From Candidatus Alistipes faecavium (GTDB lineage: Bacteria; Bacteroidota; Bacteroidia; Bacteroidales; Rikenellaceae), in the NCBI GenBank assembly GCA_019118605.1, contig DWYP01000018.1, forward strand, positions 1,102 through 65,101: a stretch of 64,000 nt of DNA. Reading direction: 5' to 3'. Each line of letters opens with the position of its first letter. Positions within the stretch are counted from its first letter, which is position 1. A program made the translations under genes and the position numbers. Below are positions 2,212-54,475 of this stretch, one piece after another. Under the pieces are notes generated by a model. That model had not been told where the DNA came from, did not search any database, and was given only the letters and a program-made list of their open reading frames with translations.

Positions 2212-2676
2212 ATGATACAACGCATTCAAACCCTTTATCTTCTGGTCGTTGCGGCGCTCATGGCCGTGACGCTCTTCGTGCCGCTGGCCTGGTTCGCCGC
2301 CGATGGCGCCGAGTACCGTCTCTACGCCTTTTCGCTCCAGACGCTCGAAGGCGGGGCCGTGCAGGGTACGGTCTACATGGGGCTGCTGCTGCTCGCCTCG
2401 TGCCTGCTTCCCCTTGTGACGATCTTCCTCTTCCGGCGGCGGATGCTGCAGATCCGCCTCTGCGTGGTCGAGATGGTGCTGCTGCTGGGTGCCACGGCCA
2501 TGGAGGCGATCTACTACTACCTCAGCGCGCGGGCCTTTTCCGACGCGGCGATGTACGCCCGGGGATTCAAGCCCTCCATCGCGCTGCCGCTGGTCGGACT
2601 GTTCTTCGCCTATCTGGCCGTGCGGGCGATTTTCCGCGACGAACTGATGGTTCGCGCCGCCGACAGGATACGCTGA
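2212..2676 (+). CDS. DUF4293-like membrane protein
   Basis: 154 aa, starts MIQRIQTLYLLVVAALM, about four hydrophobic helices. Begins 4 nt after the GT2 stop. Confidence 0.7.
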   Translation: MIQRIQTLYLLVVAALMAVTLFVPLAWFAADGAEYRLYAFSLQTLEGGAVQGTVYMGLLLLASCLLPLVTIFLFRRRMLQIRLCVVEMVLLLGATAMEAIYYYLSARAFSDAAMYARGFKPSIALPLVGLFFAYLAVRAIFRDELMVRAADRIR

Positions 2677-2823
2677 ACGATAACCCGTTAAGGTCATTCG
2701 ATACCGGGATCCGGAGATGCGCAGCGTCTCCGGATCTTTTCTCTGCCGGGAATACGAATAATAAATTGTCGTTAAATGCGCAAAAAATGCCTGAAAAGTC
2801 TTTGTATATTTGGAAAATAAATA

Positions 2824-2831
2824 TAACTTTG
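2824..2831 (+). promoter_or_regulatory. candidate Bacteroidota -7 promoter box (TAACTTTG)
   Basis: Matches the TAnnTTTG consensus. Lies inside a visibly AT-rich 245-nt spacer, about 90 nt upstream of the ATG at 2922. Confidence 0.35.
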
Positions 2832-2921: not shown

Positions 2922-5231
2922 ATGAAAACCGTGAATTTATGGAAAACATTCCTCTTTTCGGCGTTGACTCTCGCAGCCTTTACCGCCTGCGACAACAATG
3001 AAACCGAGGAAGAGGGAGGAATCCCTTCTATTACTGTTAACGGTGGCGAGACCGCAACGGTCGCCGGCACCTACGAAGAGTGCACGACGGAGGCCGTCGA
3101 GGTCGTATCGTCGGGCAGCTGGACGCTGACGCTGAGCGATCCTTCCGCCTCGTGGTGCACGCCGAGCGCCGTTTCGGGCAGCAAGGGCACCACGCAGCTG
3201 ACCTTCAAGCTGGCAGCCACGACCGCCGACCGTGAGATTACCGCCACGCTGACCACCGCCGGCTCGGTCGAGGGCATTCCGATGACCGACGAGGCCAAGA
3301 TCATCATCAAGCAGAACGCCGGAGGTTCGTCGGCCGTGGAGACCAACGTCGCCGAAGTCCGCGCGCTGGTGGCCGCGATGAACCCCACGATGACCAAGGT
3401 GGACGCTTCGGCCGATATTCTGGCCTTGGGCAACCTGGTAGGTGTCGTCTCGGGTGATCCGGGCGATGCCCCCAACATGGGCAACAAGTACCTGACCGTT
3501 ATCCAGGATACCGACAACGCCGAGAACTCGGGCCTGATGATCAACCATGACAACGTGTCGTCGTGGAAGACCGGACAGCTCCTGCAGATCTCGCTCGAGG
3601 GCGCCCAGGTGCAGAAATACAACGGTACGCTGCAGCTGTCGCTGTCGGACGCCAAGGTGACCGTCCTCGGCGAGGGCGTCGAGATTACTCCCGTGGAGCT
3701 TGCGTCGGTGGCCGACATCGAGAAGTATCAGTCGCAGCTGGTGAAGTTCCCCAACGTGCAGACCGTTACGGAGTATGCCGAGGGTACGACCTATGCTTCG
3801 AAGTACAATGCCGATTTCGTGACCGAGGGCGGCGAGTCCTTCACGGTATACACCAACAAGACCGGCAACGAGAACTTCGGCACGACGGTGATCTCGAACC
3901 TCAGCGGCCCGATCATGGGTATTGCCAACTGCTACCAGAAGAATAACGAGGGCGACGTGACCCTGCAGCTTGTGCCCCGTAATGCCGAGGATGTCGCCGG
4001 CCTGACGAATCCCCGTTTCGTGCTCAAGACTTCGGCTGCTACCATCGCCGAGGTGCTCGAGGGCGGTGAGGGCGCCTACAAGGTGGAGAATGCCACGGTA
4101 GTGGCCGCCACGACGCGTTCGTTCGTCATGCAGGATGCCAGCGGCGTGATACTCGTGTATTGCGACAAAAATACCGTTCCGGAGGTAGGGTCGGTCGTTA
4201 CGGTGGAGGGCCTCGTGAGCCCCTACAGCAACGTGCTGCAGTTCGACAAGCCGACCGTGACCGTAACCGGTACGGGCAGCGTTTCGGAGCCCACGCCCAC
4301 GGTGGTTGACGCTTCGAACATCCAGACGATCATCGACGCCCACAAAGTCGTATTCGTGCAGGTATCTGGCGAGCTGTACAAGGACGGCTCCTACTACAAC
4401 ATGAACTTCAGCTTCGAGACCACCAAGACGGGTTCGATCGACTCGCCGCTGGCCAGCCTCAACCTTGATAACTATTTGGATCAGATGGTGGACATCAAGG
4501 GATGGTTTATTTATACGACTGGCGAGGGTGTCCGCTTCACGGTGGTTGCCACGGAGGTTTCGGCCAACACCACCGCCCCGAACGTGAAGTTCGACAAGGA
4601 TGCACTCAACTTTGACGGTTCGGGCGCCGAGCCGCAGAAGGTCGGCTATACCACGCAGAACGTGACGGGCAGCGTCGAGATGGTGCTCGAAGGAACCGAT
4701 GCCGACAAGTTCGAGATCAGTGCGAAGGACGATTCGTCGGTGACGGTGGCCGTGAAGGGCGACAACACCGGCGATGCAGCCTACGAGGCCTCGCTGGTAG
4801 CCAAGGTCGGCGGCAAGGCGATTGCTTCCGTAGCCCTGACGCAGGCCGTAGCCATTCCCGACGGTTCGAAGCAGGTAACGTTCGTCTTCGCGGAGATGGG
4901 CTTTGAGAATGCCCAGGAGGTGCCTGAAGTAAGCAAAGACGGAATCAAGCTCGCATTTGAGCTGGGTGCGAATACGAACGGCAATACTCCGAAGTACTAT
5001 AGCACCGGCAACGGCCTGCGCACCTATGTAGGCAACACGATTACGATCTCCGGTGCGACGATCACGAGGGCCGAGTTCACGTTCGCGGGTGCCTCCTACA
5101 ACAAGATTGAGGCTTCGGGATATGTTGCCGACGGGGCGACGGGAACCTGGACCGGTTCGGATAAGAGCGTTGTCCTGAATTCGACGGGAACCACGCGTAT
5201 TCAGAAGATCGTGGTGACCTACACCGAATAG
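2922..5231 (+). CDS. surface lipoprotein with a BACON module, repeated OB-like (DUF5689-like) barrels and Ig-like C-terminal modules
   Basis: Lipobox LAAFTAC followed by acidic DNNETEEEGG. BACON-like SGSWTLTLSDPSASWCTPS...TFKL. Two modules resemble the GxVxxD...QD...G OB-type pattern seen again in the 10527 gene. Confidence 0.85.
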   Translation: MKTVNLWKTFLFSALTLAAFTACDNNETEEEGGIPSITVNGGETATVAGTYEECTTEAVEVVSSGSWTLTLSDPSASWCTPSAVSGSKGTTQLTFKLAATTADREITATLTTAGSVEGIPMTDEAKIIIKQNAGGSSAVETNVAEVRALVAAMNPTMTKVDASADILALGNLVGVVSGDPGDAPNMGNKYLTVIQDTDNAENSGLMINHDNVSSWKTGQLLQISLEGAQVQKYNGTLQLSLSDAKVTVLGEGVEITPVELASVADIEKYQSQLVKFPNVQTVTEYAEGTTYASKYNADFVTEGGESFTVYTNKTGNENFGTTVISNLSGPIMGIANCYQKNNEGDVTLQLVPRNAEDVAGLTNPRFVLKTSAATIAEVLEGGEGAYKVENATVVAATTRSFVMQDASGVILVYCDKNTVPEVGSVVTVEGLVSPYSNVLQFDKPTVTVTGTGSVSEPTPTVVDASNIQTIIDAHKVVFVQVSGELYKDGSYYNMNFSFETTKTGSIDSPLASLNLDNYLDQMVDIKGWFIYTTGEGVRFTVVATEVSANTTAPNVKFDKDALNFDGSGAEPQKVGYTTQNVTGSVEMVLEGTDADKFEISAKDDSSVTVAVKGDNTGDAAYEASLVAKVGGKAIASVALTQAVAIPDGSKQVTFVFAEMGFENAQEVPEVSKDGIKLAFELGANTNGNTPKYYSTGNGLRTYVGNTITISGATITRAEFTFAGASYNKIEASGYVADGATGTWTGSDKSVVLNSTGTTRIQKIVVTYTE

Positions 5232-5249
5232 TCGAGGAAACCGACTTAT

Positions 5250-5300
5250 AAACCAACCACTCTTGGCGGGGCCTTCCGTGCCCTGCCAAGAGTTTGGTTT
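5250..5300 (+). terminator. hairpin between the first and second genes (terminator or attenuator)
   Basis: AAACCAAccACTCTTGGC (5250-5267) pairs with GCCAAGAGTTTGGTTT (5285-5300). That gives 9+7 bp with a 2-nt bulge and a 17-nt loop. There is no long T-run beyond the stem. Confidence 0.4.
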
Positions 5301-5354
5301 CTAAAAAGCACTGTAGATCATCTATTTCCTTTTCTACGGATGGTATCTGTCTTC

Positions 5355-6581
5355 ATGAAACGTTCGGGCCTGTCGCTGCTGCTGGCGGCCGCCGTGCTTG
5401 TCCTCTCTGCCGCCTGCGACAAGGAGGATATGCCCGCCGTGAAGTCCTCCGCAAGCCTCGCCGTCCCGGTCGTCGACCCCGTGCAGGGCTCCTGCGGGAT
5501 CATCACGCAGGGCGCCTCCGGAACCGCCTTCACGGCAACGCTGTCGTTCGAATCCGCCTCGGAGCCCTGGTGCTCGTTCGGGGAGTCCGGATCCGTGACA
5601 ACGGCCGTCGGGAAGGTCGGACAGAGCCTCACGCTCTACGTGTCGGCCAATCCGTCGGACACCTACCGCACGGCGGACATCTCGGTGGTCTATGCCGACG
5701 GCTACACCGCGTCGCTGAGCCTTGCGCAGATGCCCGGAACCGTGCCCGCCGACATCGCAAGGGGCTGGGGCGAACTGCCCGCCTATCGCGAGGGCGCCAC
5801 GTTCATCTACAAAAAATACCTTACGACGCTCTCCGGAAACGGTTATTTCTCCGGCGGCCGCTTCCGCAACTTCACCGTCTGCTACGACACGCAGACCCGG
5901 GTGTCGCAATGGGTGGCCTACCCGGTTTTCTACCCCTATTACGAGACCCCGAAGCTGGACCGCGTGAACGCCTTCGGGTACGATCCCAACGACCAGCAGC
6001 CCGCCATTCCGACCTCGGAGCAGCAGAACATCTCGCGCGGATACGGTGCGGGCGGCTACGACCGCGGGCACATGCTGCCCCAGGCCACGCGCTACAACAA
6101 TTACGAGACCAACCGCATGACCTACTACGCCACCAACATGATGCCGCAGAATAGCCGCCTGAACCAGGGGATCTGGGCCTCGCTCGAGGGCAAGGTGCGC
6201 GGATGGGGTCCTCTGCCCAACGGCACGCGCTACGATACGCTCTATGTGGTGACGGGCGCGAGCTTCAAGGATCCCGGGGCGACGATCTCCAACGCCAACG
6301 GCCCGATCACGGTGCCGACGCATTGCTGGAAGGTGCTGCTCAAGCAGAAGGGCAACCTCAACAAGCAGCTCTGGGAACTGGAGGCCGACGAGGTGAAGGC
6401 CATCGGTTTCATCTTCACGAACGATGCGGCGGGGGCCGGGACGTCGCTCCTGGAGGCCGCCTGCACGGTCGGGGAGGTCGAGCAGCTGACAGGTTTCGAG
6501 TTCTTCCCGATGTTGGATCCCGCGGTCGCCGGGCAGGTCAAGAATCGCCTCAATACGGCCGAATGGAGCGGAATATACTGA
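5355..6581 (+). CDS. DNA/RNA non-specific endonuclease (Serratia NucA / Endonuclease_NS family) lipoprotein with an N-terminal BACON-like module
   Basis: Catalytic region is GYDRGHMLPQATR...YYATNMMPQNSRLNQGIWASLE. Lipobox VLSAAC is followed by DKED. The track ORF starts at 5340, but the ATG at 5355 gives a canonical signal peptide MKRSGLSLLLAAAVLVLSAAC. Confidence 0.9.
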   Translation: MKRSGLSLLLAAAVLVLSAACDKEDMPAVKSSASLAVPVVDPVQGSCGIITQGASGTAFTATLSFESASEPWCSFGESGSVTTAVGKVGQSLTLYVSANPSDTYRTADISVVYADGYTASLSLAQMPGTVPADIARGWGELPAYREGATFIYKKYLTTLSGNGYFSGGRFRNFTVCYDTQTRVSQWVAYPVFYPYYETPKLDRVNAFGYDPNDQQPAIPTSEQQNISRGYGAGGYDRGHMLPQATRYNNYETNRMTYYATNMMPQNSRLNQGIWASLEGKVRGWGPLPNGTRYDTLYVVTGASFKDPGATISNANGPITVPTHCWKVLLKQKGNLNKQLWELEADEVKAIGFIFTNDAAGAGTSLLEAACTVGEVEQLTGFEFFPMLDPAVAGQVKNRLNTAEWSGIY

Positions 6582-6621
6582 TGATAATGACCGATATGAA
6601 TCTTAACAACAGCAGAATGTC

Positions 6622-7656
6622 ATGAAGAGACTCTTTTTAACCACGTTGTTTGCCGCTTTGATTGCGGTCGTCTGCTTCGCGCAGAAGCCCTATAAGGTGG
6701 TATTCTACAACTTCGAGAACCTGTTCGACACGATCAACGAACCGGGGGTTCTCGACGACGAGTTCACGCCCGACGCCCCGAAGCGGTGGAATACCGCCAA
6801 GTACACGCGCAAGCTGGCGAACCTCGAACGCGTGCTGTTCGACATCGCCGCCGCGGACAAGGAGTTCCCCATCGTGATCGGCGTCTCGGAGGTCGAGAAC
6901 CGCTCGGTGATGGAGGATGTCATCGCGCAGCCGAAACTCGCCGCCGGGAACTACCGCATCGTCCACTTCGACTCGCCCGATGCGCGCGGTGTCGACGTGG
7001 CGTTCTATTACCGTCCCGACGTCTTCAAGCTCGAGGGCAGCGCCGCCATTCCCTACGTGATGCCCGGGATGCCCGACTTCAAGACGCGCGATTTCGTGAC
7101 CATGTGGGGCACGATCGACCGGGAGCCGTTCTTCTTCCTCGTGAGCCACTGGCCCTCGCGTCTGGGCGGCAAGGAGGCGTCGGCCTCCAAGCGCATGAAC
7201 GCCGCGACGCAGATCCGCCACATCATTGACTCGGTGACGGCCGCGAATCCCGCCACGAAGGTCGTGGTGATGGGTGACCTGAACGACGACGCCACCGACA
7301 GGAGCATCGTCGAGGGTCTGCGCGCCAAGGGCCGCCTCGAGGAGGTCGGTCAGGGCGACATGTTCAACCCCTTCATCGGGGTCTTCAAGGCCGGATACGG
7401 ATCGCTGGCCTATCAGGACGAGTGGAACCTCTTCGACAACATCATCGTCTCGGAGAACCTCGCCACGGGTTCGACCGGGGAGCTCCGCCTGCAGCCCGTC
7501 CGGGACACGAAGTTCTACGGCGGCATTTTCCGGCGTCCCTACATGATCCAGAAGGAGGGACAGTACAAGGGTTATCCTTTGCGTACCTTCGTGGGCAACG
7601 ACTTCCAGGGAGGTTTCAGCGACCACCTGCCCGTCTACATCTACATCGCAAAATAA
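6622..7656 (+). CDS. endonuclease/exonuclease/phosphatase (EEP) family protein, secreted
   Basis: SPI-type signal (VVCFAQ/KP). Then VVFYNFENLFD, SEVEN, VSHWPSR, GDLND and FSDHLPV, which match the EEP catalytic N, E, H, D-N and D-H positions. Confidence 0.88.
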   Translation: MKRLFLTTLFAALIAVVCFAQKPYKVVFYNFENLFDTINEPGVLDDEFTPDAPKRWNTAKYTRKLANLERVLFDIAAADKEFPIVIGVSEVENRSVMEDVIAQPKLAAGNYRIVHFDSPDARGVDVAFYYRPDVFKLEGSAAIPYVMPGMPDFKTRDFVTMWGTIDREPFFFLVSHWPSRLGGKEASASKRMNAATQIRHIIDSVTAANPATKVVVMGDLNDDATDRSIVEGLRAKGRLEEVGQGDMFNPFIGVFKAGYGSLAYQDEWNLFDNIIVSENLATGSTGELRLQPVRDTKFYGGIFRRPYMIQKEGQYKGYPLRTFVGNDFQGGFSDHLPVYIYIAK

Positions 7657-7673
7657 TCTAAACGACGAGTGAT

Positions 7674-10508
7674 ATGAAACTCAAAATTCTACTTATTCTG
7701 ATGCTTGCCGGATTGACGTGCGCCTCCTATGCGCAGGACGGAGGCATCCGCGGCAAGGTGGTTTCGCGCGCCGGGCGCGTGGGCCTGAGCAACGTGAAGG
7801 TGGAGGTCGAGCCGCTGAACCTGTCGATCCGCACCGACAAGAACGGATATTTCGAGGTGGAGAACCTCCCTGCAGGGCAGTACAAGGTGCATTTCGCTAC
7901 CCCGGAGTTCGAACCGCTCGAGCTGGTGGTGCGCGTGGGCTCGGAGCATGTGCAGGATCTTCGTTCGGTGATCCTCGTTCCGTCGAGCCCCCTCGGGAGC
8001 ATCGACGACGCGGTCTTCATGGAGTATGACACCGACTCCCCGGTTTCGGACATGCAGGCCCTTCCCTCGTCGCTGACGGCTTCCGACGACCTGTTCAACA
8101 ACATCGCCTCGTACCGCTTCAGCGAGATGCGCTTCAACGTCCGCGGATACGACTCCCAGTATTCGGACATCTACCTCAACGGCATCCGCTTCAACGACGC
8201 CATGACCGGATACGGCCCGTGGTCGCTGTGGAGCGGTCTGAACGACGCCACGCGCAACCAGGAGGGTGTCGCGGGCCTCGAGATGCTCGATTACGGCATC
8301 GGCGGCATCGGCGGCGCGACGAATGTCAACGCCCGGGCCTCGCAGATGCGCAAGGGCTTCCGCGTGAGCGTCTCGAACGGCACGCAGCTCTACCGCTTCC
8401 GCGCGATGGTATCCTACGGCTCCGGACAGCTCGACAACGGCTGGTCGTACGCCTTCTCGGCGGGCACGCGCCAGGGCGGCAACGGATACGTCGACGGCGT
8501 GTATTACAACTCCTACTCCTATTTCGCCTCGGTGGAGAAGCTCTTCGGGCGCAACCACCGGCTGGGCCTCACGCTCCTTGCGTCGCCTTCGCAGCGCGGC
8601 GCGCAGCAGGCCTCGACCGACGAGGCGTACCGCCTGTTCGGCAACAACTACTACAACCCCAACGTGGGCTATCAGGCCGGGAAGCTGCGCAACTCGCGCG
8701 TGCGCAACATGCACGAGCCCATCGCCATGCTGACCTACACGTGGGACATGTCGGAGAACACGCGCCTGAACGCCGCCACGTCGCTGCGCTTCGGCAAGAA
8801 CGGCTATTCGGCCCTGACGTGGAGCGGCGGCCCCGACCCGCGCGGGGACTATTACCGCTACCTTCCCTCGTCGGATGTCACGCAGATCGTGCCGGGCATC
8901 ACGACCGACCGTACGATCTACTTCTACGCCCTGGATGCCCTCCAGGCCGGGAAGGTGTGGGACGGCATGCTCGACTTCGACGGCTTCTACCACATGAACG
9001 ACTACATCGACACGGAGCTTACCGACCTGGTAGGTGACAGCCGCCGCTCGAACTACATGATCGAGGAGCGCCACACCGACCAGCTGGACTACAACTTCGC
9101 CGCGAGCATCCAGCACAACATGCGCCACAACATGCGCATCGTCGGGGGTGTGAACGTGCGCATGAACCGCACGAACTACTACTCGCAGGTCAAGGATCTG
9201 CTGGGCGGCGACTACTGGTACGACATCGACAAGTTCGCCGAGCGCGACATGGCCAACGTCGAGGCCGCGCAGAACGACCTGGACTACTACTGGCAGACGG
9301 GACATGCCCGGATTGCCAAGGAGGGTGACAAGTACAGCTATTACTACCGTGCGCACATCATGGAGTCGAACGCCTGGGCGAACTATTCGTGGAACCGCGG
9401 AGGTTTCTCGCTGGGCGTGGCCGGAGAGATCGGCTATTCGCAGATGTACCGCGAGGGTATGTGGCGCAAGGGCCTCTTCCCCGACGATTCGAAGGGCGAC
9501 TCGAAGAAGCTCGACTACCTGACCTATGAGGGCAAGCTCGCCCTGGGATACAAGTTCTCCCGGGCGCATGCGCTCGAGGCCAACGTGGCCTACATCCAGC
9601 AGGCCCCGAAGTTCTCCACGGCCTTCGTCTCCCCGCGTACGCGCAACACCGTGACCCCGGGACTCACCACCGAGAAGATCTTCGGCGTGGATCTGACCTA
9701 CAACCTCACGCTGCCCTTCCTCAAGGCCCGGCTGGCCGGATACTACACGACTTTCAAGGATCTTTCGAAGGTCATCTCCTTCTATGACGACACGCGCAGT
9801 TCGTTCACGAACTTCGCCATGAGCGGCATCGACAAGGAGCACTACGGCATCGAGTTCGCGGTGTCGGTTCCGATCTGGAACGGGATTTCGGCCATCGGGG
9901 CCATCAGCTGGGGCGAGTACACCTACACCTCGAATCCCAATTTCGTGCAGACGGTGGACAACATCGACAAGATCGTCCTCGTAGACCGCGTGAACTGGAA
10001 GGGCTACCACGTCGAGAGCACGCCCCAGACGGCCATCAACGTGGGCCTCGACTACCGCGGAGCCCGCAACTGGTTCGCCGGCGTGAATTTCAACTATTAC
10101 GACAACCTCTACCTGTCGATGAACCCCATGTACCGCACCAACAGCGCTTCGCGCTACTACACCGATGTGATCGCTTCGGAGATCTCCAAATCGGATCCCA
10201 ATACGGAGGTGATCCTTTCGGCCGTGAAGTCGATCAAGACGCTGCGGGCCCAGGAGAAGTTCGGCGGCTATTTCACGCTGAGCGCCAACGTGGGCAAGAA
10301 CTGGTACATCGGCAATTACATGCTGGGCATGAGCCTCGAGGTGAAGAACATCCTCAACGACCAGTCGATCCGTACGGGCGGATACGAGCAGATGCGCATG
10401 AACAAGGTGCGCGGCACGGACGGCGAGTACATGTACAGCCGTTTCCCGTCGAAATATTTCTACCTGTTCGGGACGACCTACTTCCTGAACCTCTACATTC
10501 GTTTCTAA
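7674..10508 (+). CDS. TonB-dependent receptor with an N-terminal carboxypeptidase-regulatory-like domain
   Basis: Signal peptide, then GIRGKVVSRAGR...NGYFEVENLPAGQYKVHF, a plug-like DIYLNGIRFND, a long beta-barrel and a terminal aromatic residue (LYIRF). No SusD gene follows. Confidence 0.9.
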   Translation: MKLKILLILMLAGLTCASYAQDGGIRGKVVSRAGRVGLSNVKVEVEPLNLSIRTDKNGYFEVENLPAGQYKVHFATPEFEPLELVVRVGSEHVQDLRSVILVPSSPLGSIDDAVFMEYDTDSPVSDMQALPSSLTASDDLFNNIASYRFSEMRFNVRGYDSQYSDIYLNGIRFNDAMTGYGPWSLWSGLNDATRNQEGVAGLEMLDYGIGGIGGATNVNARASQMRKGFRVSVSNGTQLYRFRAMVSYGSGQLDNGWSYAFSAGTRQGGNGYVDGVYYNSYSYFASVEKLFGRNHRLGLTLLASPSQRGAQQASTDEAYRLFGNNYYNPNVGYQAGKLRNSRVRNMHEPIAMLTYTWDMSENTRLNAATSLRFGKNGYSALTWSGGPDPRGDYYRYLPSSDVTQIVPGITTDRTIYFYALDALQAGKVWDGMLDFDGFYHMNDYIDTELTDLVGDSRRSNYMIEERHTDQLDYNFAASIQHNMRHNMRIVGGVNVRMNRTNYYSQVKDLLGGDYWYDIDKFAERDMANVEAAQNDLDYYWQTGHARIAKEGDKYSYYYRAHIMESNAWANYSWNRGGFSLGVAGEIGYSQMYREGMWRKGLFPDDSKGDSKKLDYLTYEGKLALGYKFSRAHALEANVAYIQQAPKFSTAFVSPRTRNTVTPGLTTEKIFGVDLTYNLTLPFLKARLAGYYTTFKDLSKVISFYDDTRSSFTNFAMSGIDKEHYGIEFAVSVPIWNGISAIGAISWGEYTYTSNPNFVQTVDNIDKIVLVDRVNWKGYHVESTPQTAINVGLDYRGARNWFAGVNFNYYDNLYLSMNPMYRTNSASRYYTDVIASEISKSDPNTEVILSAVKSIKTLRAQEKFGGYFTLSANVGKNWYIGNYMLGMSLEVKNILNDQSIRTGGYEQMRMNKVRGTDGEYMYSRFPSKYFYLFGTTYFLNLYIRF

Positions 10509-10526
10509 CCGAGAAGAGAAAACACC

Positions 10527-11747
10527 ATGAAAAGTCTTAAACTGAAAATAGTATTGGCCGCCCTGGCCGGCCTGGTCGTCTCGGGCTGCTACAACGATTT
10601 CGATACCCCGGCGCCGGAGAAGCTCTACACCGACGAGGACATGACGACGCTCGGCCTGACGCAGATCTCCATCGCGGATGTGAAGGCTCAGTACAGCAAG
10701 GTCTTCGGATCGGTTTCGGGAACGGGAACCAACAACAACGGCTGGGACAACACCAAGACCCTGAAGTTCGGAACGCTGACCTCCGATGAGGAGGATTTCG
10801 TGAGCCTCGAGGGGTGGCCCGAAGCCGCGGGGTACTACATCAAGGGCAAGGTGCTCAGCAGCGACCGTCAGGGCAACGTCTACAAGTCGCTCTACATCTA
10901 CGACGGCACGGCGGCCATCGAGCTGAAACTCTATACGGGCCTCTACCTCGATTACTACCTTAACCTCAATACGATGGAGAGCCAGTGGGTCTACGTGCGC
11001 CTCGACGGGCTCTACCTGGGCAACTACCGCATGATGCTCTCGATCGGCGGCTCGCCGTCGGACGCCATCAACACCTCCGGCACGCACAAGTACTACGCCA
11101 ACTCGAACCTCGACAATCCGAAGATCGCCAAGCTGAACGTCTTCCCCGGGGAGCCGGCCATGCTTGAGGAGTCGGACATCCTCGAGGTCGACGCCACGAA
11201 CTACAAGGATCTCGGCGAGAAGGATCTGGCGCGTTTGGTGCGCTTCAAGAACGTGAAGGTGCGCTACGCAGGCATCCCGAACCAGAGCGGCGTGACCAAT
11301 CCCCCGATGAAGAACGGCACGTTCGACAACCTCTATCCGACGTGGATCGTCACCGACTGGGGTTCGCCCCGTTATGGCGCATGGTACCGCTGGGCCTACA
11401 ACGTCGAGAACGTGCGCCTCTACGGCTCGGTGCTGATCACCTACGACGAGACGGAGACCAATACGGCCAAACCGGGGGTCTATTCGATCCGTACGAGCGG
11501 ATATTCGCAGTTCGCCATGAAACCCATTCCGCGCGACGGCACGGTCGGCACGGTGCTGGGCATCTATGGCGTCTACGGTCAGCGGTGGGATCAGGCGCAG
11601 TTCCAGATCTCGGTGAGCCGCCTCGAGGATCTCGACTTCCCCGCCGAATCGCTGCTGACCGAGGCGGAGATCGAGGCCATGACGCCCGCCGAGTCGTACA
11701 ACCCGCCCGTGAAGAACAACAACGGCGACTACGAGAGCGGCGAATAG
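10527..11747 (+). CDS. DUF5689-like (OB-type) lipoprotein occupying the SusD position
   Basis: Lipobox VVSGC. Carries YYIKGKVLSSDRQGNVYKSLYIYDGTAAIELKL, which fits the DUF5689-type pattern. Begins 18 nt after the TBDT stop. The family name needs an HMM check. Confidence 0.78.
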   Translation: MKSLKLKIVLAALAGLVVSGCYNDFDTPAPEKLYTDEDMTTLGLTQISIADVKAQYSKVFGSVSGTGTNNNGWDNTKTLKFGTLTSDEEDFVSLEGWPEAAGYYIKGKVLSSDRQGNVYKSLYIYDGTAAIELKLYTGLYLDYYLNLNTMESQWVYVRLDGLYLGNYRMMLSIGGSPSDAINTSGTHKYYANSNLDNPKIAKLNVFPGEPAMLEESDILEVDATNYKDLGEKDLARLVRFKNVKVRYAGIPNQSGVTNPPMKNGTFDNLYPTWIVTDWGSPRYGAWYRWAYNVENVRLYGSVLITYDETETNTAKPGVYSIRTSGYSQFAMKPIPRDGTVGTVLGIYGVYGQRWDQAQFQISVSRLEDLDFPAESLLTEAEIEAMTPAESYNPPVKNNNGDYESGE

Positions 11748-11808: not shown

Positions 11809-11848
11809 AAAAAGAGAGGCTGCCACAATCAGTGGCAGCCTCTCTTTT
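11809..11848. terminator. bidirectional intrinsic terminator between convergent genes
   Basis: AGAGAGGCTGCCAC (11813-11826) pairs with GTGGCAGCCTCTCT (11832-11845), a perfect 14-bp stem with a 5-nt loop. It is flanked by A5 and T4. Confidence 0.75.
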
Positions 11849-11883: not shown

Positions 11884-14718
11884 CTACTCCTCCGCAGCGG
11901 CGGCTTCGAGCCGCATGACGACCTTCACCACGTTGCCGTCGTCGAGGATCTTCCGCGCCAGAGCCTGCACGTCGGCATCGGTCAGCGAGCGCACCGTCTG
12001 CTCGTAGTCGGCCACGTAGTCGAGTCCCGAGCCGTATTTCGCCTGCAGGAAGGAGAGCCATCCGGCATTCTGCTCCAGGGCGTTGTTCCACTCCTTGAGC
12101 AGGAATTCCCGGGTCTTCTCGATGTCTTCGCTCTGCGGGCCCTCCTCGGCGATCCTGCGGATCTCGGCCACGATGATTCCGCACAGCTCGTCGGCCATCT
12201 GCTCGTTGGTGTCGAACGCGATCGCCATGTTGTAGCTCTCCTCGGGAATGTAGGAGGTCGCGCCGCCCACCTGCACGCCGTAGGTGCCGCCCTTCTCCTC
12301 GCGGATCGATACCAGATAGCGCGAGTCGAGCGCCTGCGTGAGGAACGTCATGGCCACCTTGTTCTTCAGGCTGTAGGGCATCTGTCCCGAGTATCCGAAG
12401 TGTACCGAGACCTTGGGCTGCTGCATCGCCACGGTGAAATCCTCCGTCACCTCACCCTCGACCTCGCGCACCTTGTCGTCGGCCCACGTCATCTTTTTCT
12501 TCGACGCGGGGATCGAGCCGATGTACTTCTCGACAAGCGGTTTCAGCACCTCGGGGTCGATGTTGCCCACGAAGGTGAAGACGAAACTGTTGGCATCGGG
12601 GTAGAGTTTCGCGTAGATGGCGGGGAGCTTCCCGAAGTCGAAGGCTGCGAGCTGCTCCTCCTCGAGCATCTGGCGGCGCGGGTGGTTCGCGTAGGTTACT
12701 TCGAGCACCTTGTCCTGCATCAGGTAGTCGGGGTTGCTCTTGACGTTGGCCAGCTGCGCGCGCACCATCTTCATCAGGTTATCGTAGTCCGTGCGGTCGA
12801 AGCGCGGCTGCGTGAAGTTGAGGTAGAGCAGCTGGAGCATCGTCTCGATATCCTTGGGCGAGCAGTAGCCGCTCATGGCGCTGGTGTAGGACTCCACGGA
12901 GGTCTGCACCGAGGCGCTCTTCCCCGTGAGCTGCTTGCGGAGTTCCGTCGAGGAGAACTTCCCGACGCCCGACATCGCATTGATCGACGACATCATCTCG
13001 CCCATGTAGTACTCCTCGTCCGAGAGGCGCGACAGCCCTCCCTTGGCCACGGCGCTCATGCGCACCTCGTCGGCCTTGTAGGTCGTGGGCTTCACGACGA
13101 TCCGCGTGCCGTTTGCGAGCGTCCACTCGATCGTTCCGTAGGCTGCGTCCTCGGAGGTCTTCTTCACCTTCGAACCCTTGAGTTCGGTGCCCTCGGGGAT
13201 CAGCGGCTCCTTGACCACGTCGTCCTCGTATGCCTCGATCTCCGAGTTCATCACCCGCTCGCGGATTGCGAGCAGCTCCCCGGACGTCGGCGTGGCGAGC
13301 CCCTCCTTCTCGGGAGCGGTGACCACGATCACCTGGTTCGTCGGGGTGATGGTCTGCTGTGCGAAGGCGTTCACGGCATCTACCGTAATCATCTTGAGCA
13401 GCATGCTGTCGAGCTGCCATTCGGTTTCGGCGTCGGGAATCGGGCTGTTCTTCTGGTAGTTGCTCAGGTAGTCGTTGACGAACTGTTCGTTCTGGCGGTC
13501 ATTGCGGTTCGTGTACGAACGCTCGGCCTGGCGCAGGAGGTTCTCCTGTGCACGTTCGAACTCGCCCTGCGTGAACCCGAAGCGGCGCACCTTCTCCATC
13601 TCGGTATAGAGGGCCTCGAAGCCGCGGGCCAACTCCCCATCCTGCGTCATGGCGATGTATGCCGTGGCGTTGAGCGTGGGGATTACGCCCAGCACGTCTC
13701 CCGTTCCCATGCCTCCTCCGAGGAACGGCGCGTCGGCCTGCATGGCGAGTTCCTGCAGGCGGGCGTTGGCCATCGTCGAGACATAAGCCTCGATTACGCC
13801 GTTGATCTCGCCCATGACGGTGTTGTTGAACTCCGCGGGTACGGCCGGGCGCTTGATGAAGAGCTGCACCTTCGAGCCCTGCATCTCGGGATCGGTGAAG
13901 ATGCTCACGATCGGCTCCTCGTTGTCGGGAACGGAGATGACCTCCTTTTCGGGGGCCCCGGCCTCGGGAGCCGGGATGTCGGCCATCAGGGTCTTGATCT
14001 GCGCCTCCACGGCCTCGGCGTCGATGTCACCCACGACGATCACGGCCTGGTAGTCGGGACGGTACCATGTGTGATAGAAGTCCTCCAGCTCGTCGTGGTC
14101 GAAACCCTTCAGCCCGTCGAGGTAGCCGATCAGGTTGCGGTGCTCGTACTTCGAGCCCTTGCCCACGGCCTTGAGCATGTTGATCGACGAACGCCACGAG
14201 GCGCCGTCGCGCGTGCGCAGCTCCTCCATAATCACCCCGCGCTCGGAGTCGATCTCCTCGGGTTGGAGGGCGATGAAGTGCGACCAGTCGTGGAGAATCA
14301 GCAGCGCGGAGTCGATGATCCCCTGTCGGGAGGTCGGCACGTCGGAGATGTTGTAGACGGTCTGGTCCCAGGAGGTTCCGGCATTGAGGTTCGCGCCGAA
14401 CTTCACGCCGATCTTTTCGAGATACTCGATAAGCTGCTTTCCCGGGAGGTTTTTCGTGCCGTTGAAGGCCATGTGCTCGAGGAAGTGGGCGAGGCCCTGC
14501 TGGGCGTCGTTCTCCTGAATGGCGCCGACGTTGTGCAGGATGTAGAAGTCGGCCTGTCCTTTGGGTTTTTCGTTGTGGCGGACGTAGTAGGTCATTCCGT
14601 TCGGGAGCGTGCCGGTCCGGAGTTCGGGGTCCGTCGGGATCGGCGCCATGGGATCCATCTGCGCCGAGGCGCTGGCGACGGCAAAGGCCGCGGCAACCAG
14701 CAACAGGATTCTTTTCAT
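11884..14718 (-). CDS. M16 (pitrilysin/insulinase) family zinc peptidase, two-domain
   Basis: 944 aa with a signal peptide and the inverted zinc motif HFLEHMAFNGT (HxxEH). Confidence 0.92.
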   Translation of the reverse strand: MKRILLLVAAAFAVASASAQMDPMAPIPTDPELRTGTLPNGMTYYVRHNEKPKGQADFYILHNVGAIQENDAQQGLAHFLEHMAFNGTKNLPGKQLIEYLEKIGVKFGANLNAGTSWDQTVYNISDVPTSRQGIIDSALLILHDWSHFIALQPEEIDSERGVIMEELRTRDGASWRSSINMLKAVGKGSKYEHRNLIGYLDGLKGFDHDELEDFYHTWYRPDYQAVIVVGDIDAEAVEAQIKTLMADIPAPEAGAPEKEVISVPDNEEPIVSIFTDPEMQGSKVQLFIKRPAVPAEFNNTVMGEINGVIEAYVSTMANARLQELAMQADAPFLGGGMGTGDVLGVIPTLNATAYIAMTQDGELARGFEALYTEMEKVRRFGFTQGEFERAQENLLRQAERSYTNRNDRQNEQFVNDYLSNYQKNSPIPDAETEWQLDSMLLKMITVDAVNAFAQQTITPTNQVIVVTAPEKEGLATPTSGELLAIRERVMNSEIEAYEDDVVKEPLIPEGTELKGSKVKKTSEDAAYGTIEWTLANGTRIVVKPTTYKADEVRMSAVAKGGLSRLSDEEYYMGEMMSSINAMSGVGKFSSTELRKQLTGKSASVQTSVESYTSAMSGYCSPKDIETMLQLLYLNFTQPRFDRTDYDNLMKMVRAQLANVKSNPDYLMQDKVLEVTYANHPRRQMLEEEQLAAFDFGKLPAIYAKLYPDANSFVFTFVGNIDPEVLKPLVEKYIGSIPASKKKMTWADDKVREVEGEVTEDFTVAMQQPKVSVHFGYSGQMPYSLKNKVAMTFLTQALDSRYLVSIREEKGGTYGVQVGGATSYIPEESYNMAIAFDTNEQMADELCGIIVAEIRRIAEEGPQSEDIEKTREFLLKEWNNALEQNAGWLSFLQAKYGSGLDYVADYEQTVRSLTDADVQALARKILDDGNVVKVVMRLEAAAAEE

Positions 14719-14737
14719 ACGGTTCTGATTGGGATTT

Positions 14738-14989
14738 TTAATGTGTAAAACGAATTTCGGTCTGTTTCGTGTTTGCGTCGGCCGCGTCGGGACGGAATTC
14801 CAGCACGTCGCCGGGCTGGCACTCCAGTTCGCGGCAGATCGCCTCGAGGGTCGAAAGCCGGATGGCCCTGGCCTTTCCGTTCTTGAGGATCGAGAGGTTC
14901 GCGGGGGTGATGTCGATGCGTTCGGCCAGCTCGCCGAGCGACATCTTCCGCTTGGCCATCATGACGTCGATGTTGATGATGATAGGCAT
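14738..14989 (-). CDS. XRE/Cro-type helix-turn-helix transcriptional regulator (YozG-like)
   Basis: 83 aa starting MPIIINIDVMMAKRKMSLGELAERIDITPANLSILKNGKARAIRLSTLEAICRELECQPGDVLEF. ATG confirmed at 14989. The track ORF to 15361 is an Arg/Pro-rich upstream extension. Confidence 0.88.
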   Translation of the reverse strand: MPIIINIDVMMAKRKMSLGELAERIDITPANLSILKNGKARAIRLSTLEAICRELECQPGDVLEFRPDAADANTKQTEIRFTH

Positions 14990-15000
14990 GGTGTCGCGTG

Positions 15001-15711
15001 TTAGATGGTCAGTTTCTGCTCCTCGCTGAGGTTCTGGCCGATGGCGAAGACCTCGGCCGAGAAGAGGATCAGCAGGCCCATGATGATCATGGAATAGGAG
15101 ATATGGAGGCTTGTGTCGACCGTCAGGCCGCTGCCGGCGAGGAGTTCCGCGGCCCGGAGGTTCATGGCGCGGCCCAGCAGGCCGTTGAGCAGCTCGGCAA
15201 GGATGGTCAGCACGCCGATCGAGCGCAGGTACCAGACGTTGCGGCGGCCGAGGGGCCGTTCGTCGCGGATCGAGCGGCGCAGCGAGCGGATGATCAGGAT
15301 CATCAGCACGATGACGGCCAGCAGCAGGAGCGGGATGAGCATCGTGAAGGCGTAGATCCATGCACTGCCGCCCAGTGTGCGGAAGGCGATTCCGAGCGGG
15401 GAGATGCCTCCGGCGGGTTCGTCGACGATCAGATTCATGCGCGTGACGACGGGTTCGATTACGGCCTCTGCGGAGCGGATCGGGCTGTTGTCGCCGGTTC
15501 CCCCGACGATGCGCACGTCGCCCAGCAGATAGATCATCCGCGGATCTCCCTGCTGGAGTTTTTCGGCGATTTTCTCACCCATCTGCATTCCGTCGGCGGC
15601 CCCGCGGCAGAAATCGCCCAGCACGCTGTGGACGATGCCCGTGACGATGACCAGGAACAGGGCGATGTAGAGGAACAGGAGCCGCTTGAGGAGCGATTTT
15701 TTGTTCTGCAT
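15001..15711 (-). CDS. DUF2975-like membrane protein, partner of the HTH regulator
   Basis: Multi-helix membrane protein. Its stop lies 11 nt upstream of the HTH ATG. The track start at 15741 is TTG, so I prefer the ATG at 15711 (MQNKKSLLKRLLFLYIALF). Confidence 0.78.
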   Translation of the reverse strand: MQNKKSLLKRLLFLYIALFLVIVTGIVHSVLGDFCRGAADGMQMGEKIAEKLQQGDPRMIYLLGDVRIVGGTGDNSPIRSAEAVIEPVVTRMNLIVDEPAGGISPLGIAFRTLGGSAWIYAFTMLIPLLLLAVIVLMILIIRSLRRSIRDERPLGRRNVWYLRSIGVLTILAELLNGLLGRAMNLRAAELLAGSGLTVDTSLHISYSMIIMGLLILFSAEVFAIGQNLSEEQKLTI

Positions 15712-19264: not shown

Positions 19265-20839
19265 TCATCTCCAGGCGGTCGCTTCCCGGCGCCACTCCCG
19301 GAGCTTTTGCTGCTCGCGGGGCGTTGCCGGGGCGGTCGACCCCGGATAGTTGGGCGAATATATGATTTTTTCGGTAATGATCTGCAGCTCTCCGTTGCGG
19401 ACATAGCGCGCGTCGCGCTCCGCGAGGTGCGCGGTCAGCCGCGTGCGCCATGTGCGCAGCTCCGCGGCGTATTGCTCCTCTCCGGCCAGGTCGCGGCACT
19501 CCCCGGGGTCGTTCTCCAGGTCGAAGAGCTGCTCCTCGCCCGTGCGGGCGTTGCGGATGTATTTCCGGCGCCCGTCGGTCAGGGCCATCCAGCAGTTCTC
19601 CGGTTCGTAGATCTGGGCATGCTCCAGGTCGATGTATTCGCGCCACGGCGCCCCGGGGTCGGCGATCAGTCCGAGCACCGAGCGTCCGTCCATGTCGTCG
19701 GGAACCCCGCAGCCTGCGGCTTCGAGCATCGTCGGAAGGACGTCGCGCAGTTCGACAACCTGGCTGCGGCGTTCGTTCACCCCTCCGCAGCGGTCCCGCA
19801 TGTCGGCCGGGAGCCGTACGATGAAGGGTATCCTTGCCGAACCTTCGTAGGGGTATGTCTTGCGCCAGTGGTTGTGGTCGCCCAGCATGTCGCCGTGATC
19901 CGAGAGGAAGATAATCAGACAGTCGTCGTAGATGCCCTTCTCCTTGAGGGCCTCGACGATCCGTCCGATCTCGTAGTCGATGAACGAGATGCTCGCATAG
20001 TAGTATTTCCTTGCCCGGAGGGCCACCGAATCGCCGAAATCGCCGTAGCAGGCGTCGGAGGTCTCGGGAGTGTCCGGACGTGCGAAGCGCTCGCTCCATG
20101 CGCTGCGGAACGGGAGGGGGATCTGCTCCCCGTCGTAAAGCGCGACGAACCGTTCGGGCGGGTCGTAGGGGCTGTGGGGCCGTGCGAACGACACCTTCAG
20201 GAACAACGGATCCCCGAGGGCGTAGGCGTCGATCATCTCGATGGCTGTCTGGGCCGTCCAGGCTGTCGGGTGCAGGCGTTCGTCGAGCGGGTAGGGGGCG
20301 GCATAGTGGGAATTCCAGCTGATATGCAGCGTGTCGGGATTGATCCCCGGGGCATGGAGCTTGAACCAGTCGCGGTAGTCGCTCACGAATCCGTCCTGCT
20401 CGATGCGGCCGCTTTCGTCGACCAGCGTGCCGTTGAATCCGTGAAGCGTCTTCTGCGGGAACCAGTGCATCTTCCCGATTCCGAAGGTGTAGTACCCGGC
20501 CTCGCCCAGCATGCGCGGCATCTCGTAGCGGTAGTGTTCGGCGACGCGTCCGTATCCGAGCATGCCGTGGTGCCAGGGCGCGAGTCCCGTGAGTAGCCCC
20601 GCACGTGCGGGCGTGCTGCTCGGCACCGAGGAGTAGGCGTGGGTGAAGAGCGTTCCCTCGGCGGCCAGGCGGTCGAGGTTGGGTGTGTGGATGTGGGGAT
20701 TCACCGCCCCCAGGCAGTCGCCGCGGAACTGGTCGGCAACGATCAGAATGATGTGCGGCTGCCCGACGGTGCGGGCGGCGGCCGGGACTCCTGCCGCGGC
20801 CGCCGCTCCGATCATCAGGATTTTGTCGGCGCGGTACAT
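19265..20839 (-). CDS. S1 family sulfatase, Ser-type active site
   Basis: HIILIVADQFRGD...TPNLDRLAAEGTLFTHAYSSVPSSTPARAGLLTGLAPWHHGM. The formylglycine motif reads S-T-P-A-R, so Ser replaces Cys. Confidence 0.9.
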   Translation of the reverse strand: MYRADKILMIGAAAAAGVPAAARTVGQPHIILIVADQFRGDCLGAVNPHIHTPNLDRLAAEGTLFTHAYSSVPSSTPARAGLLTGLAPWHHGMLGYGRVAEHYRYEMPRMLGEAGYYTFGIGKMHWFPQKTLHGFNGTLVDESGRIEQDGFVSDYRDWFKLHAPGINPDTLHISWNSHYAAPYPLDERLHPTAWTAQTAIEMIDAYALGDPLFLKVSFARPHSPYDPPERFVALYDGEQIPLPFRSAWSERFARPDTPETSDACYGDFGDSVALRARKYYYASISFIDYEIGRIVEALKEKGIYDDCLIIFLSDHGDMLGDHNHWRKTYPYEGSARIPFIVRLPADMRDRCGGVNERRSQVVELRDVLPTMLEAAGCGVPDDMDGRSVLGLIADPGAPWREYIDLEHAQIYEPENCWMALTDGRRKYIRNARTGEEQLFDLENDPGECRDLAGEEQYAAELRTWRTRLTAHLAERDARYVRNGELQIITEKIIYSPNYPGSTAPATPREQQKLREWRREATAWR

Positions 20840-20849
20840 GACACAACGA

Positions 20850-23123: not shown

Positions 23124-23139
23124 GTCGCAGAGACGTTTT

Positions 23140-25299: not shown

Positions 25300-25341
25300 G
25301 GGCAAAGGTTTGGGTGTGGTTGGCATGTGCGGTCGGGATTG

Positions 25342-25425
25342 TCCCTGCGCGGCGCAGGGAGACCCGTAAGGAGAAATTGCCGACTCTCGGGGCCGGCAAT
25401 TTCTCTTTTTTCGGATCGTGATCCG
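25342..25425. terminator. cluster of three hairpins in the 128-nt spacer upstream of GH89 copy A
   Basis: TCCCTGCGC-g-GCGCAGGGA at 25342-25360. GAGAAATTGCCG (25371-25382) pairs with CGGCAATTTCTC (25394-25405), followed by T6 on the + strand. CGGATC-gt-GATCCG at 25412-25425. Confidence 0.45.
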
Positions 25426-25427
25426 CA

Positions 25428-26696: not shown

Positions 26697-26748
26697 TTGA
26701 GTGTTTGTTTAGTGGTGATTAGTGTATGTTTGGAAATGTATTGTCGTT

Positions 26749-27516
26749 TCAACGAATCGTAACCTCCGAGAGCACGGGGAAATGATCCGAGAGCCGGCTG
26801 TCGGTGCACCGCTTCGTGGCGTTCAGACGGATAGGGTCGCTTCCGCGGTAAAAGATGTGGTCGATTTTGATCTCCGCATCCTTGACCGGATAAGTCGGCT
26901 CGGCGTTCGTCAGCGGCATCCAGCCGTTCGAGGTCAGGCGCCGGATCTCCCGGGTGTCGGGCTCGGCGTTCATGTCCCCGGCCAGGAAGGTCGGGTGGGG
27001 AGCCTGCGCGAAGTAGGCGTTGATGAATCCCGCCTGTTCGTAACGCGCCTCGGGAGTGCTGACCTCCAGGTGTGTGCACGCAAAGGTCACGATGCGCTTG
27101 TCGGGCATCTCGACGTCGACCACGAGCATGACGCGCTGTTCGGCCTTCCCGTCCTGCGGGAGCAGCACCCTCTCGGATCGCAGGATCGGGTATTTGCTCA
27201 GGATGCCGATTCCGTAATACCCGCCCTTGTAGTCGAGGGCCTTGCCGTAGGCGGTGAACATGCCCGTCGCGCTGCCCAGCTCGTTGACGAACCGCACGTG
27301 GTGCTGCTGCGGGGCGCGTTCGCGCTGCGTGTCCCAGTCGCACTCCTGCAGGGCGACCAGGTCGGGCTGCTGGCTGGCGATGTATTCTCCGATCTGCTTC
27401 ATGGAGGCGATCTCTCCGAAGCGGAGGTTGTAGCTCATGATGCGCAGGTCGAGCTCCTGGGCCGCGGAGGCTCCGTGGAGCATCAGCGCGGAGAGAAGTA
27501 TCAGAATGTGTTTCAT
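26749..27516 (-). CDS. small secreted EEP-fold phosphodiesterase/nuclease-like protein (paralog 2)
   Basis: 255 aa with an SPI signal. Carries IMSYNLRFG, LVALQECDW, FACTHLEV, LAGDMNAEPD, IDHIF and LSDHFPV, which match the EEP catalytic pattern. Confidence 0.88.
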   Translation of the reverse strand: MKHILILLSALMLHGASAAQELDLRIMSYNLRFGEIASMKQIGEYIASQQPDLVALQECDWDTQRERAPQQHHVRFVNELGSATGMFTAYGKALDYKGGYYGIGILSKYPILRSERVLLPQDGKAEQRVMLVVDVEMPDKRIVTFACTHLEVSTPEARYEQAGFINAYFAQAPHPTFLAGDMNAEPDTREIRRLTSNGWMPLTNAEPTYPVKDAEIKIDHIFYRGSDPIRLNATKRCTDSRLSDHFPVLSEVTIR

Positions 27517-27523
27517 GTCGGAA

Positions 27524-28345: not shown

Positions 28346-28348
28346 GGG

Positions 28349-29137: not shown

Positions 29138-29144
29138 GTGTCGT

Positions 29145-30836: not shown

Positions 30837-30873
30837 GTTTCGAACGATGTGTGTGTTTGGTTGATTCATGCTG

Positions 30874-47103: not shown

Positions 47104-47115
47104 AGCGTCAATTCG

Positions 47116-48885: not shown

Positions 48886-48899
48886 GATTCTGAAGGCTG

Positions 48900-51659: not shown

Positions 51660-51702
51660 AGAAAACCTTGTCTTGTAAACTCTTTAATTATAGCTTGTTG
51701 AA

Positions 51703-51736: not shown

Positions 51737-51752
51737 CTTCAGTGGGCGTCAG

Positions 51753-54448: not shown

Positions 54449-54475
54449 GGTTTGTATCTGTTAATCCTTGTTTCG

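Follow-up and report, generated by a model that had tools for sequence, protein, structure and literature searches.

What is the purpose of a TonB-dependent transporter (TBDT) that is encoded without a SusD partner or a glycoside hydrolase and between two secreted nucleases and a lipoprotein? This question is raised by five genes at positions 2922-11747 of a 64,000-nucleotide stretch of contig DWYP01000018.1 (assembly GCA_019118605.1, Candidatus Alistipes faecavium), which is referred to here as the window. In a preliminary description of this DNA the genes were read as the nucleic-acid counterpart of a polysaccharide utilization locus (PUL), with nucleic acid bound and nicked at the surface, imported through the TBDT and finished in the periplasm. 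That model is the same as the one published for the ddb locus (PMC12478041). The accompanying statement that no functional description of the gene set exists has to be withdrawn, as it is covered by two papers in PNAS (2022 and 2025) and by a study of transformation in Riemerella. From homology and gene order, we consider it highly probable that the window locus is the Alistipes counterpart of the ddb DNA-utilization locus.

The ddbABCDEF locus (DNA depletion in Bacteroidales) was characterized in Bacteroides thetaiotaomicron by Sharan et al. (PNAS 2025; PMC12478041). DdbA and DdbF are nucleases with type II signal peptides (SPII), DdbB is a nuclease with a type I signal peptide (SPI), DdbC is a TBDT, DdbE is an SPII accessory protein, and DdbD is a DUF5689 lipoprotein which is predicted to dock on DdbC and resembles the p202 (HIN) domain that binds double-stranded DNA (dsDNA). 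Nuclease activity of recombinant DdbA, DdbB and DdbF has been shown, deletion of ddb abolishes DNA depletion, complementation restores it, and the deletion also yields less uracil and xanthine both in vitro and in gnotobiotic mice (PMC12478041). The same authors compared ddb explicitly with the Sus PUL and distinguished four subtypes, Bt1, Bt2, Pv1 and Pv2.

The open reading frames (ORFs) and spacing of the window locus were re-read and agree with the preliminary description: five co-directional genes, all on the plus strand, are separated by gaps of 123, 40, 17 and 18 nt. Searches with the Endonuclease_NS, Exo_endo_phos-type, DUF5689 and BACON models all gave matches, that of BACON in gene 1 being below threshold, and Pfam scanning of the five genes and their neighbours revealed no SusD, glycoside hydrolase or regulator within the unit. 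Signal peptides and lipoboxes were read by eye. Genes 1, 2 and 5 each have a lipobox followed by acidic residues, in line with the surface-export signal proposed for the lipoproteins.

Gene 2 (5355-6581, with an alternative in-frame ATG at 5340) encodes a lipoprotein of 408 aa composed of a BACON domain and a NucA-type nuclease domain. The lipobox LSAAC precedes DKED, in agreement with the export signal C(xx)(D/E)(D/E) applied in PMC12478041. Scanned on its own, the N-terminal segment gives a BACON score of 25.2 bits, and the nuclease domain matches Endonuclease_NS at E = 2.7e-37 with its catalytic motifs intact (DRGH at residues 236-239, NMMPQ at 261-265 and SLE at 276-278). The best solved relatives are structures of Anabaena NucA (1ZM8/2O3B, E ~1e-12), and the alignment covers the DRGH histidine, the Mg-binding Asn of NMMPQ and the conserved Glu. 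The catalytic domain is like those of Anabaena NucA and the Serratia marcescens nuclease (beta-beta-alpha-metal type), but the latter are free secreted enzymes, whereas gene 2 encodes a lipoprotein with an N-terminal BACON domain within a transporter locus. Gene 3 (6622-7656; 344 aa) encodes an EEP-fold nuclease that matches PF19580 (Exo_endo_phos_3) over its full length at E = 1.9e-111. All EEP motifs are kept, namely FYNFENL (N/E, 28-33), SEVEN 89, SHWPS 175, GDLND 218 and SDH 333. A plain type I signal peptide, cleaved between CFAQ and KPYK, agrees with the earlier assignment, and the product is probably periplasmic and a counterpart of DdbB. For the products of genes 1, 3 and 5, profile and single-sequence searches of PDB sequences gave no match.

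Gene 4 (7674-10508) encodes a TBDT of 944 aa with a type I signal peptide ending in AQ, a CarboxypepD_reg N-terminal domain and a weak Plug match (E = 0.0075). As described earlier, it is a receptor without SusD, no such protein being found among the five. No NCBIfam model, those of SusC/RagA type included, matched it at E <= 0.1; in contrast, the true SusC/SusD pair at 29145-34287 of the window (minus strand) scores normally. Judged by sequence, gene 4 is the counterpart of DdbC and not a SusC-type transporter. Its closest named relatives are proteins of A. timonensis and A. megaguti (79% identity), and an ENA sequence is 99% identical. The family comprises 735 clusters (50% identity) at E <= 1e-30, and those named among 30 sampled clusters belong to several Bacteroidota orders (Alistipes, Tenuifilaceae, Saccharicrinis, Saprospira, Chitinophaga and Lutibacter), with Bacteroides absent among these 30 representatives.

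Gene 5 (10527-11747; 406 aa) begins 18 nt past gene 4 and encodes a DUF5689 lipoprotein (E = 1.2e-23) in which the lipobox VSGC is followed by YNDFD. We propose that it is the substrate-binding lid or partner of the transporter, that is, a putative DdbD counterpart. An AlphaFold2 model built with Bacteroides homologues added to the input reached pLDDT 78 and pTM 0.81 and is mostly beta, whereas 20 Alistipes homologues alone (72-88% identical) gave pLDDT 46. Foldseek comparison of the model with the PDB gave no match at E <= 1e-3. The best 50 weak matches (E 0.008-0.14) are nearly all OB-fold DNA/RNA binders, mainly MCM subunits or N-terminal domains plus aspartyl-tRNA synthetase (AspRS), and neither p202 nor carbohydrate-binding modules were found among these 50.

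To survey the distribution of the locus, one genome per GTDB species was scanned with a 12-sequence transporter alignment as the query, which yielded 80 loci, mostly from Alistipes, Rikenellaceae and Tidjanibacter. Bacteroides reticulotermitis, Bacteroides sp. CAG:443 and B. caecimuris were also included, with transporters 53-54% identical to that of the window. Synteny was counted over these 80 species loci and three Alistipes loci (L002-L084 in total), with denominators restricted to loci with enough flank. The EEP gene lies directly 5' of the transporter in 73 of 77 loci and the DUF5689 gene directly 3' of it in 74 of 76; the NucA gene adjoins in 61 of 72 loci and is close by in 7 more. A large ORF is found 5' of NucA in 54 of 55 loci, with a recognisable lipobox in 48. 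The co-occurrence survey thus shows that the core gene order recurs, the NucA-EEP-TBDT-DUF5689 core being syntenic in ~85-97% of informative loci. The five-gene form, in which an accessory lipoprotein gene and NucA stand 5' of the core, is the common layout of Rikenellaceae and is also present in some Bacteroides.

A connection to B. thetaiotaomicron was found through the B. caecimuris locus (L057), of which the five-gene order and Pfam content match the window. With its DUF5689 protein as query, a B. thetaiotaomicron protein was retrieved at 96% identity over 64% of the query, the sequence being partial. The contig of this protein (GCA_009021235.1, WCSN01000069), which holds the B. thetaiotaomicron locus L085, has the order Endonuclease_NS, Exo_endo_phos_3, TBDT and DUF5689, and both L086 and L057 carry a BACON/DUF5689 lipoprotein gene 5' of the core. 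The transporters of L085, L086 and L057 show 98.6-99.9% mutual identity. Between the window and L085, identity is 54.0% for the full-length transporter (944/915 residues), 67% for the EEP protein, 33% for NucA and 35-38% for the DUF5689 protein; the identity of the window transporter to those of L057 and L086 is likewise 54.0%.

In the published rule, a ddb subtype is assigned when DdbC gives BLASTP E <= 1e-15, >50% identity and >75% coverage to a reference (PMC12478041). With L085 as a stand-in for the published reference DdbC, the window transporter exceeds both the 50% identity and the 75% coverage limits. The other ddb features are also found in the window: a DUF5689 gene next to the transporter, an SPI nuclease next to the transporter and an SPII surface nuclease. 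The likeness extends to the arrangement, since in both systems an SPI EEP nuclease lies directly 5' of a SusD-less TBDT, a DUF5689 lipoprotein lies directly 3' of it, an SPII surface nuclease and an extra SPII accessory lipoprotein are present, and the logic is PUL-like. L086 measures 8776 bp over its five genes, against the published 8758 bp of the Bt2 locus (PMC12478041). The A-F order of six genes in Bt1 corresponds to BT3558-3563 of strain VPI-5482; the transporter of this strain is missing from the 80 best matches to that of the window. The window locus is, on these comparisons, probably of the Bt2 subtype.

An earlier account of related genes agrees with this placement. In the paper by Bechon et al. 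(PNAS 2022; PMC8851478), the BT3560-BT3563 operon of VPI-5482 is described in connection with a DNase in bile-dependent biofilm, BT3560-3564 synteny is reported to be conserved in Alistipes, and a second type of locus is reported from some B. thetaiotaomicron strains, in which a BACON-domain gene accompanies a homologue of BT3563 (34% identity to the VPI-5482 protein). BT3560-BT3563 shares with the window a TBDT, a hypothetical protein and one or more lipoprotein nucleases, whereas the phenotype studied for it is bile-dependent biofilm formation and it represents a more distant subtype, because the VPI-5482 transporter falls outside the 80 best relatives.

The chromosomal site of the locus is fixed in Alistipes. 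DUF4199, GT2 and DUF4293 genes lie upstream (window 2212-2676), and an M16 peptidase, an HTH_26 protein and a DUF2975 protein are encoded downstream on the opposite strand (11884-15361). The Alistipes loci L002-L004 have both the five genes and the chromosomal site alike, and so does L001, in which genes 1 and 2 are fused. In L002 an extra sulfatase gene is inserted 3' of gene 5. The flanks in Bacteroides are unrelated, with AAA-ATPase/PDDEXK_9 upstream and DUF4010/MgtC downstream, which is consistent with the locus moving as a cassette.

The member of the set with least sequence conservation is gene 1 (2922-5231), which encodes a BACON/DUF5689 lipoprotein of 769 aa. Its lipobox AFTAC is followed by DNNETEEE, the DUF5689 match covers residues 141-358 (Pfam, E = 1.3e-13), and the BACON domain (~residues 73-118) falls below the Pfam threshold with 21.6 bits against a cutoff of 25; the remainder consists of a second, unassigned beta-rich region, an Ig-like segment and a C-terminal domain without assigned family. 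Gene 1 is the fastest-evolving of the five: between the window and Bacteroides the DUF5689 segment alone can be aligned (28% identity), and within Alistipes the identity of gene 1 falls to 30-36% while that of the transporter holds at 67-79%. Pfam scanning of 48 proteins of the gene 1 position, one from the window and 47 from related loci, showed BACON in 31, DUF5689 in 20, the canonical nucleic-acid-binding OB fold PF01336 in 11 (best E = 8e-17) and PF13742 in 5, together with isolated matches to the OB-fold families RMI2, CDC24_OB3 and BOF. By these sequence comparisons the gene 1 position is the hypervariable member of the locus. Since OB folds occur in 11-16 of the 48 equivalents, a nucleic-acid-binding role of the position is supported more strongly than by gene 1 alone. 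Of the two lipoproteins characterized earlier as OB-like, gene 1 has equivalents that often carry canonical OB folds, and for gene 5 the OB fold is backed weakly by the model (Foldseek E at least 0.008). We propose that gene 1 may encode an accessory surface DNA-binding protein akin to SusE/F or DdbE. The C-terminal domain (~115 aa; residues 651-769; window 4872-5228) has no Pfam match. With 33-41% identity it is found again at the C-terminal end of gene 1-position proteins that otherwise cannot be aligned, from distant loci such as L020, L029, L031, L072, L075 and L078, and it may serve for docking or anchoring as a conserved module.

The transcriptional layout of the locus was examined from its non-coding parts. 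The AT-rich 245-nt spacer upstream of gene 1 (2677-2921) was confirmed (GC 0.49 against ~0.62 in the surroundings), as was the TAnnTTTG box within it. This box, TAACTTTG, is at 2824-2831, 19 nt from a TTTG box at 2801-2804 and ~90 nt 5' of the gene 1 ATG, and both boxes are kept in four Alistipes loci (the window, L002, L004 and L014). The consensus of Bacteroidota promoters is TTTG and TAnnTTTG at -33 and -7. Read against this Bacteroides consensus, the two boxes fit a -33/-7 promoter (2801-2831, plus strand) that would drive gene 1. At the 3' end, the perfect 14-bp bidirectional terminator-like hairpin was likewise recovered, with 11813-11826 pairing with 11832-11845 in 14 perfect pairs. The A/U flanks lengthen the hairpin to 17 pairs (z = -7.6 against shuffles), so that the whole element at 11810-11848 reads AAA plus AGAGAGGCTGCCAC and GTGGCAGCCTCTCT plus TTT, and it is common to the locus and the convergent M16 peptidase gene.

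A further hairpin was found at 5259-5293 (plus strand), inside the 123-nt gap between genes 1 and 2, with a 14-bp stem followed by the U-rich tract TTGGTTTCT (z = -5.8). L002-L004 have a hairpin at the equivalent site, in which the loop-proximal sequence differs and the pairing is preserved. Among 54 related gaps between gene 1 and NucA, from Alistipes, Rikenellaceae and Bacteroides, 39 contain a strong hairpin with a stem of 11-20 bp, often bordered by an A-run and a T-run, and the stems are divergent in sequence but still paired. No strong hairpin was found in the other 15, of which 14 were scored on the default 40-nt stretch only, which suggests that these gaps are too short for a hairpin. 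The five genes had been treated as one operon; because a terminator-like hairpin that is conserved across related loci sits between gene 1 and gene 2, a single operon is uncertain and not established. Within the window, the stretch from the hairpin to gene 2 showed no TAnnTTTG box, and partial termination or RNA processing at the hairpin seems more likely than a second promoter. The conserved hairpin may act as an internal terminator/attenuator or as an mRNA stabilizer by which the ratio between gene 1 and the core genes is set.

The fused locus L001 (ENA ERZ16268042 scaffold_314) is 97-99% identical to the window and contains a 1193-aa ORF (L001:2474-6055) with both DUF5689 and Endonuclease_NS. 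An evolved fusion of gene 1 with NucA was considered and rejected: the ORF results from a deletion of ~79 nt, corresponding to window 5189-5267, the internal signal peptide and lipobox of gene 2 are retained, and L002-L004 keep the two genes apart. What is missing comprises the final ~10 codons of gene 1, its stop codon and the left arm of the hairpin between the genes; the apparent cause is either a deletion at strain level or an error of assembly.

Combining the gene assignments with the published model, a route for nucleic acid can be outlined, of which we infer every functional step, the transported species and the transcriptional layout for the window locus. The lipoproteins of gene 1 (BACON/DUF5689) and gene 5 (DUF5689) would capture extracellular DNA, possibly RNA, at the cell surface, with gene 5 capping the transporter as SusD caps SusC. 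The surface-anchored NucA-type endonuclease of gene 2 would cut the polymer into fragments, which the gene 4 transporter would bring in by means of TonB-derived energy; the periplasmic EEP nuclease of gene 3 would degrade them further, and the products would feed nucleotide and nucleobase metabolism. Such a scheme shares with Sus-like PULs the surface binders, the surface endo-enzyme, the TonB-dependent importer with a lipoprotein lid and the periplasmic exo- or endo-enzyme, as well as the signal-peptide logic (SPII outside, SPI periplasmic). However, Sus-like PULs have SusD and glycoside hydrolases, whereas the enzymes of the window locus are Endonuclease_NS and Exo_endo_phos_3 only. A glycan PUL was rejected on the same grounds, there being no SusD and no carbohydrate-active enzyme, and the transporter not being of SusC type.

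A hypervariable gene 1 family with BACON and DUF5689 or OB-fold domains, separated by a hairpin from the core, could constitute a module for specificity (dsDNA, single-stranded DNA or RNA) or dosage in ddb-type systems, or alternatively the Alistipes system could import intact DNA; we regard this as unlikely. If true, the specificity or dosage module could account for the differing DNA depletion among the published subtypes.

Import of DNA may also serve purposes other than metabolism. In Riemerella anatipestifer, markerless deletion of RA0C_RS04915 (TBDT-like) or RA0C_RS04920 (DUF5689) abolishes natural transformation, and the DUF5689 protein was proposed as a dsDNA binder (PMC8459023). The pairing of a CarboxypepD_reg-type barrel with an adjacent DUF5689 protein is the same as in the window, DdbCD has been related to these two proteins, with a ddbB-like gene adjoining in Riemerella (PMC12478041), and the family of the window transporter includes members from Flavobacteriia (Lutibacter), Chitinophaga and Saprospira. 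The transporter-DUF5689 pair of Alistipes might accordingly import DNA for transformation, with the nucleases processing the incoming DNA. We hold this to be very improbable, as a surface non-specific endonuclease together with a periplasmic nuclease would tend to destroy such DNA and competence is not known in gut Bacteroidales. The closest characterized relative is the Bacteroides metabolic locus (54%), while an identity of ~30% to gene 4 is expected for the Riemerella transporter, judged from the Flavobacteriia representative P0346. In addition, the Riemerella system, of which the function is transformation, has no NucA lipoprotein described and its DUF5689 protein also has DUF5017 (PMC8459023). 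ComEC, DprA and ComF were absent among the ORFs scanned in the 64-kb window, which was partly surveyed.

Two further alternatives concern the substrate and the benefit. Remodelling of extracellular DNA in the biofilm matrix, which the secreted or surface nuclease would trim so that bile-dependent biofilm can form, could be the main role, with nutrient or nucleobase acquisition being secondary; such a priority appears improbable to us, since it leaves the tightly conserved transporter, its DUF5689 partner and the periplasmic nuclease unexplained. PMC8851478 does identify BT3563 as an extracellular DNase required for bile-dependent biofilm, and it includes a test of a homologue from the second type of locus (34% identity to BT3563) in a clinical isolate, from which the contribution of BT3563-type DNases was concluded to be widespread in the species. 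A biofilm role is also compatible with DNA utilization and does not exclude it. Endonuclease_NS enzymes cleave DNA and RNA alike, the best solved relatives of gene 2 are the sugar-non-specific NucA and Serratia nucleases, and several gene 1-position proteins have tRNA-anticodon-type OB folds, all of which would also suit RNA or another phosphodiester polymer as the preferred substrate in place of DNA. The sequence holds nothing that separates RNA from DNA preference. The ddb locus of B. thetaiotaomicron was assayed on DNA and is needed for its depletion (PMC12478041), and we give a preference for RNA or another such polymer hardly any credence.

Several points weigh against the assignment of the window locus as a ddb-type DNA-utilization system. 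The proposed use of DNA for P, N or C is not borne out in the published system: as the sole supply of C, N or P, DNA was poor, and its conversion to uracil and xanthine was seen instead, so that "utilization" may not mean growth on DNA (PMC12478041). The subtype of the window's nearest relative, if Bt2, is reported as degrading DNA only partially (PMC12478041), and the Bt2 label itself is drawn from gene order, the length of L086 and the description in PMC8851478 rather than from the reference accessions (WP_008762511.1 for Bt1, WP_055220680.1 for Bt2, WP_005843284.1 for Pv1 and WP_117829583.1 for Pv2). The window has five genes against six in ddb, with no DdbE or DdbF at the published positions: in Bt1 DdbE and DdbF are encoded 3', whereas the accessory BACON/DUF5689 lipoprotein and NucA of the window lie 5' of the core. 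As further differences from ddb, the site in Alistipes, between DUF4293 and the M16 peptidase gene, is another one, and the surface components are only ~28-38% identical. For gene 5, the OB-fold matches do not reach significance (best E = 8e-3, TM ~0.18-0.3). Finally, the Alistipes version is known from genes alone, whereas the function of ddb was shown in Bacteroides.

Other features of the window lie outside the five-gene locus. On the minus strand, part of a classical PUL extends over 19265-34287, comprising a SusC-like gene (30874-34287; Plug 3e-20), a SusD-like gene (29145-30869) and a scanned NAGLU alpha-N-acetylglucosaminidase gene (23140-25443); a second NAGLU gene (20850-23123) and a sulfatase gene (19265-20839) were assigned by ORF-length match to L001 only. 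The NAGLU and sulfatase enzymes suggest use of host glycosaminoglycan or mucin-type glycans. This PUL is followed by genes for a major facilitator superfamily transporter (37519-38889) and a tetratricopeptide repeat protein (38910-40898). A second SusD-less TonB-dependent receptor (56005-58953, minus strand) belongs to a cluster at 45004-58953, in which BACON proteins (51753-53447, and 47116-48885 with leucine-rich repeats (LRR)), a DUF4458 protein with LRR (48900-51659) and an S8 subtilase (45004-47103) are also encoded; this cluster could be related to surface proteins or peptides. A single tRNA gene (62464-62534, plus strand) was the sole Rfam match in the window at the gathering threshold.

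The kind of system, the mechanism model, the relations to PULs and to transformation and the presence in Alistipes have already been published, and the window locus is a new member in an uncultured Alistipes. To the published accounts of ddb and BT3560-3563 two small points are added, namely the hypervariable BACON/OB position and the hairpin conserved within the locus. A DNA-processing system characterized only recently is hereby extended to Alistipes, a genus that is abundant in the gut. In annotation, a nucleic-acid uptake module could be named that comprises DUF5689, PF19580 and the TBDT clade of gene 4; this may help us to predict the gut taxa that convert dietary or host DNA into nucleobases.

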